Sequence record: NC_048204.1
DNA: 50,343 nucleotides
Origin: Escherichia phage vB_Eco_mar001J1
Strand: one strand, 5' to 3'
The position numbers were made by a program, and so were the translations under genes. Shown here piece after piece: positions 2,701 through 25,490 of this stretch; the stretch's first letter is position 1, and each line of letters starts with the position of its first letter. The notes under the pieces are model-generated. The model saw only the letters and a list, made by a program, of their open reading frames with translations. It had not been told where the DNA came from and ran no database searches.

Positions 2701-3186
2701 TCATTTTATGTATTCTGATTCCCAAATCATCCTCTGATTTATAGCATCATCCATTGATTTGAATGATTTTGATATTCTATTTGAGTTTACGCATATTGAA
2801 GCTACCCATAGATCATCTCTTTTATTATACATAACGCCAGTTATTCCGCTTGTATTGCTTTTTCTAACTCTACCGCAACCTTTTCTAAGGTTGTCTGAAT
2901 GACGTATTATTCTAAGGTTGTCGATATTGTCATTAGCCTCCTCGCCATCACAAACTGGGTTTTTATGATCTATGACAAATCCTTCTGGAATCTTACCGTT
3001 GTGCATTTCCCAAACTATTGAATGTCTGTAGTGCAGTTTTCCATTAAATCCTATTAAAACATATCCATATTCATTTTTGCACCCTGCAAAGTCTCCAGGT
3101 TTGACTCCTCCATTTCTCCCATTTCTCCTTACTTTCCAGTAAAGTATTCCATTTCTATATTCAAAATAATCACTCCAATTTATCAT
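2701..3186 (-). CDS. HNH homing endonuclease with AP2-like DNA-binding domain
   Basis: IDHKNPVCDGEEANDNIDNLR HNH motif and C-terminal SGITGV...W AP2-like segment. Confidence 0.8.
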   Translation of the reverse strand: MINWSDYFEYRNGILYWKVRRNGRNGGVKPGDFAGCKNEYGYVLIGFNGKLHYRHSIVWEMHNGKIPEGFVIDHKNPVCDGEEANDNIDNLRIIRHSDNLRKGCGRVRKSNTSGITGVMYNKRDDLWVASICVNSNRISKSFKSMDDAINQRMIWESEYIK

Positions 3187-3425
3187 TTAAATCTTTTTCT
3201 TTGCTCTCTGCTGCTGTCGATTACAGATTTGAAATCAATTTTTGTTGGAACTGCTGGAACTCTTACCATTTTTCGCGGCCTTTCCTTGAGGAAAGTCATC
3301 TTGTCGCCGCTAATTATGCTCACATCTGCAATATCAAAGTATTGCGCGATCTTCTTTATATCGTCGGCAATACCGCATTCTTTAGCGTGATTCCATACCG
3401 CATCTCTTCCTTGCTCAACCTTCAT
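3183..3425 (-). CDS. Hypothetical protein (80 aa)
   Basis: GGAGG RBS before ATG at 3425; 4-nt overlap with downstream HNH gene. Confidence 0.5.
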   Translation of the reverse strand: MKVEQGRDAVWNHAKECGIADDIKKIAQYFDIADVSIISGDKMTFLKERPRKMVRVPAVPTKIDFKSVIDSSREQRKRFK

Positions 3426-3626: not shown

Positions 3627-3670
3627 ATTATGCCCGACACTAGGCCGGGCGTTTTAACAAAAAGTGCTAT
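3627..3670 (-). promoter_or_regulatory. Cassette promoter candidate: 20-mer ATAGCACTTTTTGTTAAAAC + 18 bp (GC hairpin) + CATAAT
   Basis: Motif overlaps stop of 3670..3927; 22 bp from TTGTTA to the hexamer; almost identical to inverted copy at 50143-50186. Confidence 0.55.
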
Positions 3671-8744: not shown

Positions 8745-8777
8745 GCATTTGAAAATGCTATTATCTGCATTGTCATT

Positions 8778-13726: not shown

Positions 13727-13756
13727 CTTTGATGCTCCTTGTTGCTTTGTGTGTGC

Positions 13757-13784
13757 ATTGTAGCCATTTGGTTGATTTAGTCAA
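13757..13784 (-). promoter_or_regulatory. Sigma70-type promoter for the exo-erf-ssb operon (TTGACT, 16-bp spacer, TACAAT)
   Basis: Near-consensus hexamers read on minus strand about 30 bp upstream of exonuclease ATG. Confidence 0.55.
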
Positions 13785-14070
13785 TAGTTGTTTTGTTTTT
13801 TCTGTTTTCTAAACGTTCTTAGATTGCAAGAAAACAAATTTGAAACGTAAGTCAATGATTAATATGTGTTATTTTTCTTGCTCCCTTGTTCTCTCAGATA
13901 CGCCGGATTATATACATACACATGAATGATGGCACATACAGATGCTCATAAAGAAAATCACCACAAACAACCAAAACCACAAGAAACACAGATAACAAGA
14001 AAAAACAAATATACATACATAAATAAATAAACTATTGATTTTATATGTATATATCTATTTTATTGATTGC
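13757..14070. repeat. Divergent control region A, homologous to 42893-43200
   Basis: Shared blocks in the same order: AGCYATTTGGT..GTCAAT, CGCCGGA..TATATACATA, CAACCA..AACA..TAAATAAATAA..TTTTAT. Confidence 0.6.
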
Positions 14071-14152
14071 TTATTGCCCTTATTTTGGCTAAAATTTGCG
14101 CTAAATTTACGCCGTCTTAAATTCGATAACACCGAAAAACAAAAAATAACAA

Positions 14153-14195
14153 GTAGCACTTTTTGCTAAACGCCGCTTGTCGGATCGTGTATAGT
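14153..14195 (+). promoter_or_regulatory. Cassette promoter variant (TAGCACTTTTTGCTAAAC, TATAGT)
   Basis: One-base shorter A-run; TATAGT 21 bp after TTGCTA; upstream of lipoprotein gene. Confidence 0.45.
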
Positions 14196-14226
14196 TACAG
14201 GCAACGACAACTAAGGAGTATTGAAG

Positions 14227-14496
14227 ATGAAAAAATTAATCGCAGTTATCGCCACCGTAGCCGCTCTGACCGGGTGCGCAGCGTCTCCTACTGGCAACTT
14301 CAATGAGATCGACTGCACGGCAAAATTTAACGTTAAAACATTCCCTGTTAACGGATTCCATGAAGTTAAAATTAATGCAGTACGCGAAAACAGATTCAGC
14401 CAAAAGCAATACAGGTTGAGCGTTGACAATAAAGAAGTTAAATTTATCAACCGTTGGCAAAATGAAAGTAAATTTATTGATTTGAGGTGTAATTAA
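14227..14496 (+). CDS. Small lipoprotein, candidate Cor/Llp-type superinfection-exclusion protein
   Basis: Signal peptide with lipobox ALTGC; AAGGAG RBS; locus is convergent with tail gene J. Confidence 0.5.
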   Translation: MKKLIAVIATVAALTGCAASPTGNFNEIDCTAKFNVKTFPVNGFHEVKINAVRENRFSQKQYRLSVDNKEVKFINRWQNESKFIDLRCN

Positions 14497-14774
14497 TGGC
14501 GCAATATGGTTATGCAATATATGACGATCGAGGAAGGGAAGTTACAGGACTTTTAACGCCTGTTTTCTTCCTTGATAAATTCACTCAGCCATCAGGTAGC
14601 AAGACTTACCAAAACAGGCCGCCAGGTAAATCATTGAAAGCAATATATGTTGGCATGAATTCCTGGCGTGGTGGCGACCCTGGAGCACCAAACTTAGGGG
14701 TAAGTGGCGACACCGTTACATGGAGTGGGCTTTATGGATCTGATTCAAGATATATATATACTTTTTGGGGGTGA
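14496..14774 (+). CDS. Hypothetical protein (92 aa), possible receptor-binding locus component
   Basis: GAGGTG RBS, start overlaps lipoprotein stop. Confidence 0.45.
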   Translation: MAQYGYAIYDDRGREVTGLLTPVFFLDKFTQPSGSKTYQNRPPGKSLKAIYVGMNSWRGGDPGAPNLGVSGDTVTWSGLYGSDSRYIYTFWG

Positions 14775-14776
14775 TA

Positions 14777-15391
14777 ATGTACGGGATGAGTATAAAAAAA
14801 TCAGACGGATCGTTATGGTTAAGTCCAGATTTCACTCCAGTTAATCTAATTGATCGGGCAGTAATATCTGCTAATACCGGAACCGTTTTTACTTCGTCAA
14901 TTCCTGTTGATAGGGTATGTTTTTTCTTTGTTAGATTGACTGCTAAATCATACATATCATTTACGCAATTTAACAATGGTGGAAGGCACGCAATAAGAAT
15001 TGATAGATCTGATAATCAAGGGGAGGTTATTGTTTATGCTTTTAGTAACATGGTGACTCCTCCAGGTAGTCACGGCATAGCGTTTTATAACGCTCATGGT
15101 GAAATGGTTTATCATGGAAAAATGAGGCCGCTTGATGCAAAGCAAGTTGGTGTGAGCGGGATCGCGTTTGATGTTAACCTGGGCTACCCTTGCGCAATAA
15201 TGCCATCACTAACAGCGTTAAACTCTGTACCTAATCCGGCTTTAGGTGGATTTATGATTTTTGAGTCTCAAGCTGCCGCGTATGGTAACGGGATCTACTC
15301 TTTTTCCAGGCAGGTTGCACAAACCCCTGGACCTGTTGGTATTTACACCGCCTCATCTGTTTTGGTTATAAATGCATCACACTATGATTAA
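14777..15391 (+). CDS. Hypothetical protein (204 aa), possible receptor-binding protein
   Basis: Track ORF starts at TTG; first ATG is 14777; position next to J and lipoprotein. Confidence 0.4.
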   Translation: MYGMSIKKSDGSLWLSPDFTPVNLIDRAVISANTGTVFTSSIPVDRVCFFFVRLTAKSYISFTQFNNGGRHAIRIDRSDNQGEVIVYAFSNMVTPPGSHGIAFYNAHGEMVYHGKMRPLDAKQVGVSGIAFDVNLGYPCAIMPSLTALNSVPNPALGGFMIFESQAAAYGNGIYSFSRQVAQTPGPVGIYTASSVLVINASHYD

Positions 15392-15424
15392 AATTAAAGG
15401 GGGCTATGCCCCCCCTTTTTTTTA
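15392..15424. terminator. Bidirectional terminator between convergent genes
   Basis: GGGGGC tat GCCCCC followed by an 8-nt T-run. Confidence 0.8.
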
Positions 15425-18400
15425 CCAGCTTCCCGTAATCCTTCCGACTTCAACCCTCAATACTCCGTTTGCATCTTTTACCTTCAATCCTTCGTTGGTG
15501 AATTTAGTAGCTCCCTCTCCTGGAGTTGATCCGTAGTTTTCAAATATTCCGTTTTTATCAAGCCTCCAACCTTGCTGATTTTGAACAAAATTGTTTGACT
15601 GAATAACATTTCCAATCATGGCATTCGTTATGGACCCGTTTTTCACTAACAAGCTGTTAATGAAAACTTGGTTGTTTTCAACAACGAAAGGCAATGTAAA
15701 CGTACCGCCCGTAGAGCTAGTCATGATCGCGAACCTGTTAGCATCGAACAAGATTTGCGAGATCAGGCCTTGAGAAGATTGCGACAACTGCATGATCATG
15801 CCTGCGCTGTACTTCTGCCCCTTGTAAGTAAGGCCCAATTTCATAGCGTACTTAGCGCCAACCGAATCAACGTTGGCCCACGAATCAAGTTTTTGAGCTA
15901 ATGCAGATTCAACGTCTCCAAATTTGGCTGTTAAAGCCTGGTCAGCCTGAACCCTTGCCTCTGTCTCATTGGCGATCGCCTGTTTCACTTCTGAGATGTC
16001 AGCCTCGACTTCTGTTTTGATAACTCCGTCAAGGTCGTTTATCTCTTTCGTGAACTTAGCGTCAAGCTGCTGAACGGCCTGAGCGCGCGCTTCTGATTCA
16101 TTGGCAATGGTTTGCCTTACCTCGCCAATACTTGCAGCCGTATCTCGTTTTACGCCGTCTATTTCCTTCGTAAATTTAGAATCAAGCTGCTGAACTTGAG
16201 TAGCTCGCGTCTCTGATTCGTTGGCAATCGCTTCCTGAACGGTTTTGATACTTGAAACTATATCTTCATCAATTGACGCCCTTAACTCTTCGATTTGAGT
16301 TACGCGCGCCTCCGTTTCGGTAGCAATAAGCTCCAGTGCATGACCATATTCAGCCTTACGCTTTCCGTTTTGTACTCGCGTCCACTTCACATCAGCATCG
16401 TTTGCCAATGCGTTCTGGATGATTGATTGCGCCTGGTCTTTGATTTTGTTTGCACTGTCTATGGCGTTCTCTTTGATTTCTTGGCCCGCTTCGGTATCAA
16501 AAATCTTGTCCAGAATGTCGCCTAAAACAGATTCAACATCATCTGACGCCATGCCGCGAACAAAGTCAGTCCAGCCGGAAACGTTGCCGATCCTGTCAAC
16601 GCTACGGATTCTATACCATACAACTTGACCAGCTGGTAACGTGCTATGCCAATACTCATATTGAGGATATGGAATCAGCGTAAGCAGGCTTGAGTTTTCA
16701 ACCGTTCCGTCTGGAGATTGGTGAAGCTCAATGTAAGCCGTATCGCCTGATCCTTCCGGCATACCCCATTTGACACGAATGCCAAAAACTTCATTATCAG
16801 AAGCTGTAAGATTAATCGGCGCTCCTGGCTCGCCAACTTTACCTGTCAAGGTGGCGGTTGCAATCTTTGACCACGGGGAGGTGTTACCGCTTGCAGAAAC
16901 AGATCTAACCCTTACTTGATAGTTCCCTGAATAAATTCCTTCTACCTCTATCTCTTTGTTAGCTGTCTGCGGCGTATTCAGCCAGTTGCCATCACCTTTT
17001 CGCCACTGCATTTCATAAAGAGATGCGTAAGGAACCTTATCCCATGAAACAACCATAGTCTCAACGCTAACGCCCTGCACGACGCGAGAATAAGATGAGA
17101 TCTGCACGTTCTCAGGCGCTACCATCATGTCAGGCTGAACAATTGAAGTTGGTCTGTCATCAATGTTTACGCCATAATCAATCTCGTCGTATTTGTTCGG
17201 ATCGTACTCTACAGCCGTGATTGAATAGGTAAACTCGTTTTCGTCATCACCCTTGCTGATAGTTGTCACAACGTATTGCTGCAACGCAAGGTCAGTACGG
17301 TCAATCGCAAAAACAGTGTCAGGCTTAACATCAAAACCAAATCCAATATTTAACTCAATGGTTTTTCCGTCTGCGCTAACCTTTGAGATCGTGCGCTTAA
17401 CTGGCTTGCCGTCCGGCTTGTTGATGATAATAAAATCACCAGGACGAGCATCAACCTTAAACGGAACGAAAACCTGCAATCCTGAAACTTCCATCACTCG
17501 GCCCGATAGGTTTAACGTTAGGTTGCTGCTCTGAAAATTATCAGCGATAGCAATCACATCACCTATTGATGGAATCATCCCCTCTAGTCCGGTAGCAAAG
17601 TTTACAGTAGTGCTTCTAAGGTTTGTTTTCAAAACCCACCTACCGCGACGATTCGCTTCGCTCCTGCGTGTGCACCCGATCGCTGTAATGCTTGTTGGAT
17701 TGTATCCAAATCGTAATGCAGCCTCAGTATCAAAAACCCCCTCTACGTCCTGCTGATACATGTTTTGTTCGTCGTCAAACGTCACGTTACACTGCGTGTA
17801 CATGCTTTTTTCGCTTGCGGTTGTGTACTGAAAATCACCGTTGATGACGTTTTCATTAGTAAACACGTATGATGGATCGCGCGGCTTATCAATCACGATT
17901 GATAAACTCTCACCATTCCAAAAGCTCATTCCGCGAAAGATTGAGCAAATGTCACGGATTAGCTGATAAGCCTCAACCTGATTCTGGATCACCACATCGC
18001 ATAGGTAGCGAGGCTCTGTACCGCCCTTACCGTCTGGAACTTTCTGATCACAGTAAACGCCTGCTTCGTATAAGCTCCACTTGTCGATCTGTATTCCTAA
18101 CTCTCGCTGGTCAAGCCCATAACGCTGATTCGTCACCAGATCATAAAGAACCCATGCAGGATTATTTGACCACGCTTTTTTAAAAGTCCCATCCCATGAC
18201 CCGTGATATTCTCTTGATATTGGATCATAGTTGCTTGGCACATTAATAATCTTCCATTTCTTTTTTATAGAAATGTTAGGGATTTGTGTAGGAAACAATT
18301 CGCTGTCAAATTCTACAAATACAAGGCCAGTCAGAGGATAACGGAATTTTGCATCCACAACCTCAGCGTAACTTTGCAGTTTGATTTTATCAGTCACCTT

Positions 18401-19000
18401 TGAAGATGTGCTATCTGGAGTCAGTCGCTTGACTCTGATTAAAACGCGCTCCTCAAACTTAGGAAGATCAATCCTTCTGCTGCGGTCATATCCTGATCTC
18501 GTCTTGCCGTCAATTACATCTCTCATAACCTCGTTATAAGAACCGCCATCAACAGCCATATCTACGGCATATTGAACCCTTACGCCAACAAGATCGCCGT
18601 TATCCTCCTGCTTCATGCCAACTGGCATCAGAATCTTGATTCTGATTGCAGAAAGATTTTTGTTTGTCACAGATATAACATAAGGATTGTCTGCTGTAAT
18701 ATCTCGCGAAACTGTCACCTCGCTTGATGTGTCAGTAAACCCCTGGATGTAATCTTGCGTCTGCGTACCTGGTCGATATTCAGCCGTAACTCCCTCGTAG
18801 TTAACAGTGCCATCGCTGGCAATAACCGGAACATCATCAAGATAAAGATCGCGCAACGTGAAATTTGGATCGCACTCGCCATCAGATACAGCAAGCAAAA
18901 CTTTAATCTTATTTATCGAGATCAGGTTATCTTCCATCTCTTTTGGCACGTAGGGCTTTTGACCGCCCCCTTTACTGCCACTTATCATATATTTAGCCAT
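15422..19000 (-). CDS. J: Central tail fibre / host specificity protein J
   Basis: N-terminal and body similarity to lambda gpJ (SGSKGGG..., VPSNYDP...SWDGTFK), fibronectin-like region; start set at MAKY. Confidence 0.85.
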   Translation of the reverse strand: MAKYMISGSKGGGQKPYVPKEMEDNLISINKIKVLLAVSDGECDPNFTLRDLYLDDVPVIASDGTVNYEGVTAEYRPGTQTQDYIQGFTDTSSEVTVSRDITADNPYVISVTNKNLSAIRIKILMPVGMKQEDNGDLVGVRVQYAVDMAVDGGSYNEVMRDVIDGKTRSGYDRSRRIDLPKFEERVLIRVKRLTPDSTSSKVTDKIKLQSYAEVVDAKFRYPLTGLVFVEFDSELFPTQIPNISIKKKWKIINVPSNYDPISREYHGSWDGTFKKAWSNNPAWVLYDLVTNQRYGLDQRELGIQIDKWSLYEAGVYCDQKVPDGKGGTEPRYLCDVVIQNQVEAYQLIRDICSIFRGMSFWNGESLSIVIDKPRDPSYVFTNENVINGDFQYTTASEKSMYTQCNVTFDDEQNMYQQDVEGVFDTEAALRFGYNPTSITAIGCTRRSEANRRGRWVLKTNLRSTTVNFATGLEGMIPSIGDVIAIADNFQSSNLTLNLSGRVMEVSGLQVFVPFKVDARPGDFIIINKPDGKPVKRTISKVSADGKTIELNIGFGFDVKPDTVFAIDRTDLALQQYVVTTISKGDDENEFTYSITAVEYDPNKYDEIDYGVNIDDRPTSIVQPDMMVAPENVQISSYSRVVQGVSVETMVVSWDKVPYASLYEMQWRKGDGNWLNTPQTANKEIEVEGIYSGNYQVRVRSVSASGNTSPWSKIATATLTGKVGEPGAPINLTASDNEVFGIRVKWGMPEGSGDTAYIELHQSPDGTVENSSLLTLIPYPQYEYWHSTLPAGQVVWYRIRSVDRIGNVSGWTDFVRGMASDDVESVLGDILDKIFDTEAGQEIKENAIDSANKIKDQAQSIIQNALANDADVKWTRVQNGKRKAEYGHALELIATETEARVTQIEELRASIDEDIVSSIKTVQEAIANESETRATQVQQLDSKFTKEIDGVKRDTAASIGEVRQTIANESEARAQAVQQLDAKFTKEINDLDGVIKTEVEADISEVKQAIANETEARVQADQALTAKFGDVESALAQKLDSWANVDSVGAKYAMKLGLTYKGQKYSAGMIMQLSQSSQGLISQILFDANRFAIMTSSTGGTFTLPFVVENNQVFINSLLVKNGSITNAMIGNVIQSNNFVQNQQGWRLDKNGIFENYGSTPGEGATKFTNEGLKVKDANGVLRVEVGRITGSW

Positions 19001-19036
19001 GACTTTTAACCTTTTGTGCTGTTTCTTGGTTTGCAC

Positions 19037-19077: not shown

Positions 19078-19554
19078 CTACTTTCCGTGGTTTATGTGGA
19101 ATTTGTTTAAAACTTCAATCTCTATCCTCTTTTCTGCCGCATCCTGAAATGAATCAAAGTAAAATTCATGCCTAACACCATCAATCTTTGCTCTTGCAAT
19201 CCATTTTCCGCGACTAAAGTTTACCCCAGTAATTCCCGTCTTGCTGTTCCTGTAAAGCGACTTATTCTTGTTGTTAACACTCATTCTAACAAGTCTTAAG
19301 TTTGAAATATTGTCGTTCATTGTGTTGTGATCTATGTGATCAACTTGCATTCCATGCGGTATTTCTCCATTATGAATTTCCCAAACTATCCTGCTCCTGT
19401 AGTATCTTTCTACATCAATTGATATTCTAACCCTTTCTCCACTCTTCTTGCTTTTGCTTACGCTTCCTGCCTCACTTCCTTTCTTTATCCTTCTTCCTAC
19501 GTCTACAGCCCAAAATAACTTACCGTCATTATAATAAAAAATATCACGCCACAT
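19078..19554 (-). CDS. HNH-AP2 homing endonuclease inserted between tail genes I and J
   Basis: HNH motif MQVDHIDHNTMNDNISNLR; AP2-like TGITGV..W; start at MWRDIFYY with AAGGA RBS. Confidence 0.75.
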   Translation of the reverse strand: MWRDIFYYNDGKLFWAVDVGRRIKKGSEAGSVSKSKKSGERVRISIDVERYYRSRIVWEIHNGEIPHGMQVDHIDHNTMNDNISNLRLVRMSVNNKNKSLYRNSKTGITGVNFSRGKWIARAKIDGVRHEFYFDSFQDAAEKRIEIEVLNKFHINHGK

Positions 19555-19571
19555 GATCACATCCTTAATTA

Positions 19572-19615
19572 ATTGTAAAGCGAAAATCCGTTTTCGCTTT
19601 AACATATTGTGCTAT
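19572..19615 (-). promoter_or_regulatory. Cassette promoter variant (AAATAGCACAATATGTTAAAG, TACAAT)
   Basis: 22 bp between ATGTTA and TACAAT; overlaps stop of tail gene I. Confidence 0.45.
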
Positions 19616-25470: not shown

Positions 25471-25490
25471 ATAGCACTTTTTGTTAAAAG
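25471..25490 (+). repeat. Inverted cassette 20-mer immediately 5' of the chaperone G RBS
   Basis: ATAGCACTTTTTGTTAAAAG reads on plus strand while flanking genes are on minus; TAGATT lies 22 bp downstream on plus. Confidence 0.5.

Follow-up and report, generated by a model that had tools for sequence, protein, structure and literature searches.

Genes and signals of the locus

The window analysed here, namely the whole stretch of 50,343 bp that makes up the complete genome of phage vB_Eco_mar001J1, carries its host-recognition genes at 14227-15391, as three coupled open reading frames on the plus strand. The first (14227-14496) encodes a lipoprotein of 89 residues, a candidate Cor/Llp-like exclusion factor for BtuB. 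Its ATG is preceded by an AAGGAG ribosome-binding site at 14214-14219, and its N-terminus, MKKLIAVIATVAALTG followed by a cysteine, contains the lipobox L-T-G-C with Cys17, two further cysteines (Cys30 and Cys88) being conserved. The start codon of the second gene (14496-14774), which codes for an accessory protein of 92 residues, overlaps the stop of the lipoprotein gene (TAATG), and the ATG of the third (14777-15391), which codes for a protein of 204 residues, lies 2 nt past the TGA of the second. The GC skew is positive over 14250-15300, consistent with plus-strand coding, and the three-gene unit that an earlier note on this DNA had described (a lipoprotein with its lipobox, a 92-residue and a 204-residue protein) is present as claimed. 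The third gene adjoins the homologue of J, the central tail fibre or tip attachment protein, on the minus strand (15422-19003; 1193 residues from the ATG at 19003), the stop codons of the two ending at 15391 and 15422 with a shared terminator alone between them. J was identified through its Pfam matches (FNIII-A_GpJ, 1e-41; Phage-tail_3, 1e-22; Phage_Tail_Tip, 4e-40), and none of the three cassette proteins gives a significant Pfam family. A search for tandem repeats in J found none.

Upstream of the lipoprotein gene, at 14154-14195 on the plus strand, lies a promoter-like element composed of gTAGCACTTTTTGCTAAA, 19 nt and TATAGT. The same motif recurs throughout the genome: TAGCACTTTTTGYTAAA is followed, after about 19-22 nt, by a -10-like hexamer, and then come a leader, a ribosome-binding site and the ATG; the aligned copies have the hexamer and the leader in common. 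With at most one mismatch, CTTTTTGYTAAA occurs 15 times in the genome, against 1.8 copies expected, and the promoter-like block is kept in phage SLUR29 and in Bas06, the latter despite an overall identity of only about 75%. Because of this excess of copies and of the conservation in Bas06, the repeated motif is a real sequence feature. TTGYTA stands 21-22 nt away from the -10-like hexamer, a spacing that is odd for a promoter and counts against that reading; on the plus strand, a generic sigma-70 scan detected no promoter ahead of the lipoprotein gene, and a looser one reached 8/12 matches at best, the repeated motif being the informative signal. Of the "cassette-type promoter" of the earlier note, the motif thus stands, while its promoter activity is something that we infer. 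A MotA-box-like reading of TTTTTGCTAAA was ruled out by the spacing.

The intergenic space between the two convergent units is occupied by an intrinsic terminator (15396-15418) that is predicted in both directions by a scan of the two strands, and that would serve the cassette and J alike. Its stem, GGGGGC-TAT-GCCCCC at 15399-15413, is flanked by A- and T-runs and scores on both strands, with folding energies of -13.3 and -15.1 kcal/mol; there is a T-run on the plus strand, and the T-rich tail is weaker on the minus strand. A bidirectional terminator shared with J had been proposed before, and it lies where it should, between the stops at 15391 and 15422.

A probable receptor-specific allele beside J

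The window matches LR027388 / NC_048206, the genome of phage vB_Eco_mar001J1, at 100% identity. The phage is a Warwickvirus-like member of the Drexlerviridae (Tempevirinae), and its nearest relatives are Warwickvirus phages. Bas04 (FritzSarasin) is 97.7% identical to it at the DNA level over 14000-15450, and the lipoprotein, the 92-residue and the 204-residue protein (the last over its full length) show 98, 98 and 100% identity to those of Bas04, 54, 73 and 65% to those of Bas06, and 54, 70 and 61% to those of the Dhillonvirus PTXU06. The layout, with the lipoprotein, the 92-residue and the 204-residue protein convergent with J, is common to these three phages; in position, gene order and orientation the BtuB loci of Bas04 and Bas06 are the same thing as the locus described here, with no difference of substance. 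According to the BASEL tables, the terminal receptor of Bas04 (Warwickvirus) is BtuB, as shown experimentally, and that of Bas06 (Hanrivervirus) is BtuB too, whereas Bas05 (Warwickvirus) and Bas07 (Hanrivervirus) use FhuA (PMC8594841); PTXU06 has been cited as BtuB-dependent (PMC10373560). The criterion for a BtuB allele was a receptor-binding protein (RBP) with 30% or more identity, along its whole length, to the RBPs of experimentally BtuB-dependent phages, and the identities given above place the 204-residue protein in this class. Since this protein is 100% identical to the RBP of Bas04, vB_Eco_mar001J1 is likely to need BtuB as well.

The locus and the exact BtuB allele have already been described, in the BASEL paper and in later work. 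In Drexlerviridae, Dhillonvirus and Queuovirinae, gpJ is directly followed by a "bona fide RBP locus", the alleles of which match the terminal receptor and have exclusion genes alongside (PMC8594841); genome-wide screens have confirmed this locus and distinguished four RBP families, for FhuA, BtuB, LptD and YncD (bioRxiv 10.64898/2026.04.02.716166). The literature, in short, reads the Drexlerviridae locus as one of receptor binding and superinfection exclusion (PMC8594841; bioRxiv 10.64898/2026.04.02.716166), and the individual functions of the proteins of the BtuB allele are predictions. We regard the locus, with a probability of roughly 0.78, as the BtuB-specific allele of an exchangeable host-recognition cassette that adjoins J in T1-like and related small siphoviruses.

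Comparison of relatives by receptor agrees with this reading. Bas05, which uses FhuA, and SLUR29 of the same genus have the T1 layout, in which J is followed by proteins of about 103 and 197 residues, co-directional with J, and then by a 75-residue Cor on the opposite strand. Because these relatives carry a different cassette between closely matching flanks (93-96% identity to SLUR29), the observation that the earlier note had named as fatal to its proposal, identical loci despite different receptors, is not what is found. The proposal of a host-range and superinfection-exclusion locus is thus right in outline; it is supported by this difference, by the identity of the 204-residue protein to that of the BtuB-dependent Bas04, by the fold of a solved RBP discussed below, and by the place of the lipoprotein gene, which is that of cor in T1-type relatives. 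The FhuA cassette of T1, N15, HK022 and phi80, made of gp32 (101 residues), gp31 (229 residues) and cor, resembles the present one in matching PHROG 557, 425 and, weakly, 1119, in its site between J and a recE-type exonuclease gene, and in the orientation and signal peptide of cor. It differs in sequence (27-40% identity) and in receptor (FhuA rather than BtuB). In addition, the RBP pair of T1 is co-directional with J, whereas that of vB_Eco_mar001J1 is inverted, stands behind the lipoprotein gene in its operon and converges with J, and the mature lipoprotein has 72 residues here compared to 58 in Cor.

The 204-residue protein matches the PHROG 425 profile over its full length (residues 1-204, E 4e-49), as do, for the same profile, T1 gp31, 933W p65 and JenP1 gp21. 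By fold comparison, it is a structural homologue of an RBP solved bound to LptD, that of phage Oekolampad (Bas18; PDB 9RPT, 9RPS; PMC12685063). The fold comparison is the only link between them, as BLASTP of the 92- and 204-residue proteins against the Oekolampad RBP gave no significant similarity. Foldseek searches of viral models find the same fold in many uncharacterised proteins of 200-320 residues from diverse phages; similarity of the 204-residue protein to T5 pb5, in sequence or in fold, was not found. As in vB_Eco_mar001J1, an exclusion lipoprotein and then the RBP are encoded convergently with J in Oekolampad, but there the RBP is a single protein of 321 residues, with no separate small partner gene and no detectable sequence identity; the idea that it is a fusion of the 92- and 204-residue proteins found no sequence support. 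The receptor of Oekolampad and Rtp, LptD, is moreover not a TonB-dependent transporter, and the exclusion protein Rtp45 acts on it by steric displacement of loops. The earlier concern that the downstream proteins are too small for receptor binding can be dropped, the class being one of small proteins (321 residues in Oekolampad, 204 in gp54 of phage phi24B).

The second gene product matches PHROG 557 (7e-20), with T1 gp32, 933W p64 and JenP1 gp22 as homologues. Homologues of the two proteins occur together in 276-282 phage records, which makes the 92-residue protein a constant partner of the larger one. Such small partner proteins have been described as Ig-like and modelled at the tip of J (PMC12309495), and the homologue in phi24B was not detected in virions (bioRxiv 10.64898/2026.04.10.717836). 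The most likely place of the 92-residue protein would be the J tip, where it would serve, as a small Ig-like protein, as an adaptor or in assembly. There is also a hint that it could be a paralogue of the central part of the RBP (hhalign E 5e-4, at a probability of only 32%).

Stx-converting podoviruses also carry the pair, behind their central needle gene (933W p64/p65; phi24B gp55/gp54). The 933W proteins are 53% and 46% identical to those of vB_Eco_mar001J1, and the needle C-terminus, ...NGRLxVxIGRL, has the same motif as the end of J. These podoviruses differ in being temperate, in that the pair is read in the direction of the needle gene and has lom behind it, in the absence of a Cor-like lipoprotein, and in their reported receptor, which is BamA and not BtuB. 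For phi24B, gp54/gp55 have been proposed in a cryo-EM preprint to be the tip RBP that recognises BamA, with gp54 detected in the virion proteome and extra density seen at the needle tip (bioRxiv 10.64898/2026.04.10.717836). In the Nonagvirus JenP1, the pair converges with J, again with no lipoprotein.

A very different picture would arise if all three products were host-membrane "moron" or exclusion proteins rather than virion parts, with the downstream pair acting together with the lipoprotein. [quoted passage not shown] The two downstream proteins, however, lack signal peptides and hydrophobic segments (for the 204-residue protein, the Kyte-Doolittle maximum is 1.38 over 15 residues), and the names of PHROG 557 ("outer membrane protein") and PHROG 425 ("membrane associated protein") are old and wrong labels. 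A low membrane affinity has been calculated for these proteins (PMC12309495), in T1, SLUR29, Bas05 and 933W the pair points the same way as the tail fibre gene, and both the fold of a receptor-bound RBP and the presence of the phi24B homologue in virions (bioRxiv 10.64898/2026.04.10.717836) point to the particle, so that we consider a membrane role for the whole set very improbable.

Within the virion, the 204-residue protein might still be a cap, a chaperone or a structural adaptor, leaving receptor contact to its partner, given the reported resemblance of the small proteins to the receptor-binding domain of lambda gpJ (PMC12309495) and the fact that the small protein varies with the allele too (27-30% identity to the T1 type). 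This seems improbable to us. It is the larger protein whose structural homologue has been seen bound to LptD and which AF2-Multimer models favour at the tip (PMC12309495), and RBP families have been assigned by receptor (bioRxiv 10.64898/2026.04.02.716166). Across BtuB-type and related loci, the larger protein is also the faster-diverging of the two (41-65% identity, against 53-73% for the small one), as expected for the part that contacts the receptor. We therefore take the 204-residue protein as the BtuB-binding RBP, which would be present in the virion and bind the receptor physically.

The lipoprotein as a candidate exclusion factor

Cys17 is invariant in 13 sequences of the lipoprotein, the mature part of which comprises 72 residues. 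The full-length protein matches the Cor profile PHROG 1119 (1e-7), but the mature part alone does not, and the mature Bas06 homologue gives an E value of 0.028. In an hhalign comparison with Cor (97.5%), Cys30 and Cys88 align with Cys25 and Cys73 of Cor and a C-T-A motif is common to both; beyond the cysteine pair and this motif, the similarity lies mostly in the signal peptide. The match to the Llp fold is weak, and a PDB sequence search with the lipoprotein found nothing. A full-library HMM search with the mature part recovered 6 representatives among 1.84 billion proteins, two of them long unrelated proteins, and no wider family. The 88 records of the lipoprotein family are found only beside siphovirus RBPs of the BtuB type, except for SaltyDalty (43% identity) and Grimontviridae (weak, 30%).

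The position of the gene is a stronger argument than its sequence likeness to Cor. The lipoprotein occupies the slot of cor in the T1-type relatives and shares promoter region and signal peptide with it, and its mature part varies with the RBP allele both in Warwickvirus and in Dhillonvirus. The systems with which it was compared include T5 pb5 and Llp on FhuA, BF23-type phages on BtuB (PDB 8A8C, 8A60; PMC9586334) and Rtp45 of phage Rtp, whose binding to LptDE, as seen by cryo-EM, precludes that of the RBP (PMC12685063); Rtp45 is 35% identical to the lipoprotein of Oekolampad. By analogy with these, the lipoprotein is likely to be a superinfection-exclusion factor acting on BtuB.

An outer-membrane role of another kind, for instance in lysis, as a spanin-like protein, or as a helper in RBP assembly or export, would fit the loss of the Cor match when the signal peptide is removed, the poor agreement with the Llp fold, the co-transcription with the RBP genes and a match to an Rz-like spanin (E 0.09), one of several weak PHROG matches. 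The helper role is hard to reconcile with Nonagvirus JenP1 and the Stx phages, which have the RBP pair alone and thus show that the RBP does not need the lipoprotein. The positional equivalence to cor, with its promoter region and signal peptide, the cysteine spacing and C-T-A motif in common with Cor, and the exchange of the mature part along with the RBP type in two genera all argue for exclusion instead, and the lipoprotein at the same position in LptD-type phages, Rtp45, is an exclusion factor supported by structure (PMC12685063). We hold a role other than exclusion to be unlikely.

Exchange of the cassette and proposed mechanism

Alignment with SLUR29 delimits the exchanged segment. DNA homology is lost only across 14281-15407, where the cassette is unalignable: identity is 95.7% up to 14280, one codon past the lipobox cysteine, and homology is back at 15408, inside the terminator, which is the right-hand breakpoint. 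The tip of J (15422-15529, minus strand; the last 35 codons and the stop) is linked to the allele as well, and is presumed to be the docking site of the RBP. The last 35 residues are 66% identical to those of SLUR29, compared to 96-97% elsewhere in J, and 100% identical to those of Bas04; the motif is NGVLRV..GRITG in BtuB-type and NG[RQ]LRVQIGRLTG in FhuA-type phages. The allele-linked J tip also appears in Fig. S12 of a recent preprint (bioRxiv 10.64898/2026.04.02.716166). Among dhillonviruses, PTXU06 (BtuB type) and Oekolampad (LptD type) agree in their promoter region and in their signal peptide, MKTLIMICAVLLSGC; they split right after the cysteine codon, and homology is back about 42 codons before the end of J. 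The left joint has thus been seen twice, independently: between the BtuB and FhuA types in Warwickvirus, and between the BtuB and LptD types in Dhillonvirus.

Given that the joints are observed in the comparisons of both genera, the exchanged unit, as far as alignments define it, runs from the mature part of the lipoprotein through one or more RBP genes and the terminator to the J tip. A small new point is that in two genera the allele swaps have one break exactly at the lipobox cysteine and the other close to the 3' end of J. Whether the cassette is a plug-in unit with fixed joints, in which the mature lipoprotein, the small partner, the RBP and about 35 last codons of J move together, with the left joint at the lipobox cysteine, is a further proposal to which we give even odds.

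All together, these data allow us to propose a mechanism for the BtuB-specific cassette. The three genes would be transcribed from the promoter-like element of the lipoprotein gene up to the terminator shared with J. The 204-residue protein, soluble and all-beta, would be a component of the virion, sitting on the C-terminal tip of the J trimer, where its obligate genetic partner, the 92-residue protein, would most likely act as an Ig-like adaptor or assembly factor. Binding of the 204-residue protein to the extracellular face of BtuB, the TonB-dependent transporter of vitamin B12, as the terminal receptor would then lead to irreversible adsorption and DNA ejection. The lipoprotein would be exported, lipidated at Cys17 and presumably attached to the outer membrane on its periplasmic side, and probably binds the periplasmic face of BtuB, by analogy with Llp on FhuA and Rtp45 on LptD; infected cells and lysis debris would then no longer adsorb BtuB-dependent phages. 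A single operon would co-transcribe an early exclusion factor and a late structural protein, a point against this scheme, and Oekolampad is arranged alike.

In practical terms, the terminal receptor BtuB can be read from the genome at the cassette locus, and the segment of about 14281-15529 is the DNA to swap for retargeting a T1-like phage. Both are of use in phage engineering and receptor prediction, points already made by the BASEL papers and later work; the remaining interest of the locus lies in the candidate lipoprotein directed at BtuB, in the part played by the 92-residue partner of the RBP and in the precise recombination joints. If the plug-in reading is true, each phage backbone would keep its own promoter and signal peptide, the lipoprotein would be the first Cor-like factor aimed at BtuB, and one RBP pair would serve both siphoviruses and Stx-converting podoviruses.

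Upstream sequences and a repeated promoter-like motif

The lipoprotein gene (14227-14496, plus strand) is separated from the divergent exonuclease VIII operon by an AT-rich intergenic stretch of 500 bp (13727-14226; GC ~0.29-0.30), which contains two good sigma-70-like sites on the minus strand, at 13935-13907 and 13784-13757. T1 has an equally long gap between cor and recE.

A promoter-like motif recurs throughout the genome, with 15 copies found in the window against 1.8 expected. In this motif aTAGCACTTTTTGTTAAAa is separated by ~19-22 nt, often holding a GC-rich inverted repeat, from a -10-like hexamer; next come a leader that contains CGAAACGA and a ribosome-binding site, and the ATG is last. 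Copies start at 3653, 4724, 7213, 8775, 38863, 41660 and 42123 on the minus strand, and at 14159, 25477, 29229, 43482, 44786, 46995 and 50149 on the plus strand. The distance from TTGTTA to the -10-like hexamer, 21-22 nt, is greater than a normal sigma-70 -35/-10 pair allows and points to a factor-dependent promoter or to an upstream element of an unusual kind. The plus-strand copies at 25477 and 29229 are oriented against the tail and structural genes, and a GC hairpin and a T-run come within ~40-60 nt after the copy at 25477 and after the minus-strand copy at 8775. These three copies could give rise to very short or antisense transcripts.

Variation in and around gene J

The coiled-coil part of the tail-tip protein J (~15979-16230 within the minus-strand gene at 15422-19003) contains repeated ...ANESE[TA]RA.QVQQLD.KFTKEI... 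units and varies in length among relatives. In the BtuB-dependent relative Bas04, homology with J of the window is interrupted at 15979-16200 and the annotated protein is shorter by 51 aa. In the comparison with SLUR29, a relative with a T1-type (FhuA) cassette, 73-nt segments of this part pair with one another out of register. Tandem Repeats Finder made no call for the J coiled-coil repeats at ~15979-16230. An HNH_3 endonuclease gene (19078-19605, minus strand; Pfam 1.3e-15) separates J from the tail assembly gene. It looks like a homing-endonuclease insertion, since the matching interval of Bas04 is a gap with no annotated gene.

Distribution and kinship of the cassette proteins

A lipoprotein that shares 30% identity with that of the window is found in podoviruses of ~90 kb: Cronobacter phage vB_CsaP_009, of the Grimontviridae, and Proteus phages 3H10_20 and PmiP-P59. 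In vB_CsaP_009 its gene (3001-3267 of locus L010) is surrounded by early genes, and a weak match to the 204-aa protein, the proposed BtuB receptor-binding protein (RBP; 14777-15391), is located at a distant site of the same genome. The second-best Foldseek match to the RBP model is a protein of Proteus phage 3H10_20.

About 18 records labelled as Campylobacter jejuni phages (MG0656xx; 'Campylobacter phage E6, C4, A139, A16a ...') are T1-like genomes of ~47-50 kb. They carry a J gene of the window type, and some of them also have the cassette, with 51-72% protein identity; these records look like coliphage contaminants or mislabelled entries.

The RBP and its constant genetic partner, the 92-aa protein (14496-14774), also occur as a pair in Stx-converting podoviruses, directly 3' of the central needle gene and 5' of lom (933W, L002 4434-6618), and, with no lipoprotein at all, in the Nonagvirus JenP1 (L003 4717-5615). 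The C-terminus of the 933W needle bears the J-tip motif in the form NGRLAVRIGRL. In RefSeq, p64 of 933W is given as 75 aa from an internal start, and the tblastn alignment spans the full 92 aa.

The two proteins of the pair have a similar N-terminal motif, M-x-YG-x-x-I-x(3-5)-G...TPV. The 92-aa protein aligns weakly with RBP residues 98-174 (hhalign E 5e-4, probability 32%), a comparable alignment is found between T1 gp32 and residues 111-169 of gp31 (BLASTP E 0.013), and part of the RBP model is matched by viral proteins of ~95 aa. The 92-aa protein and a domain of the RBP may be paralogues.
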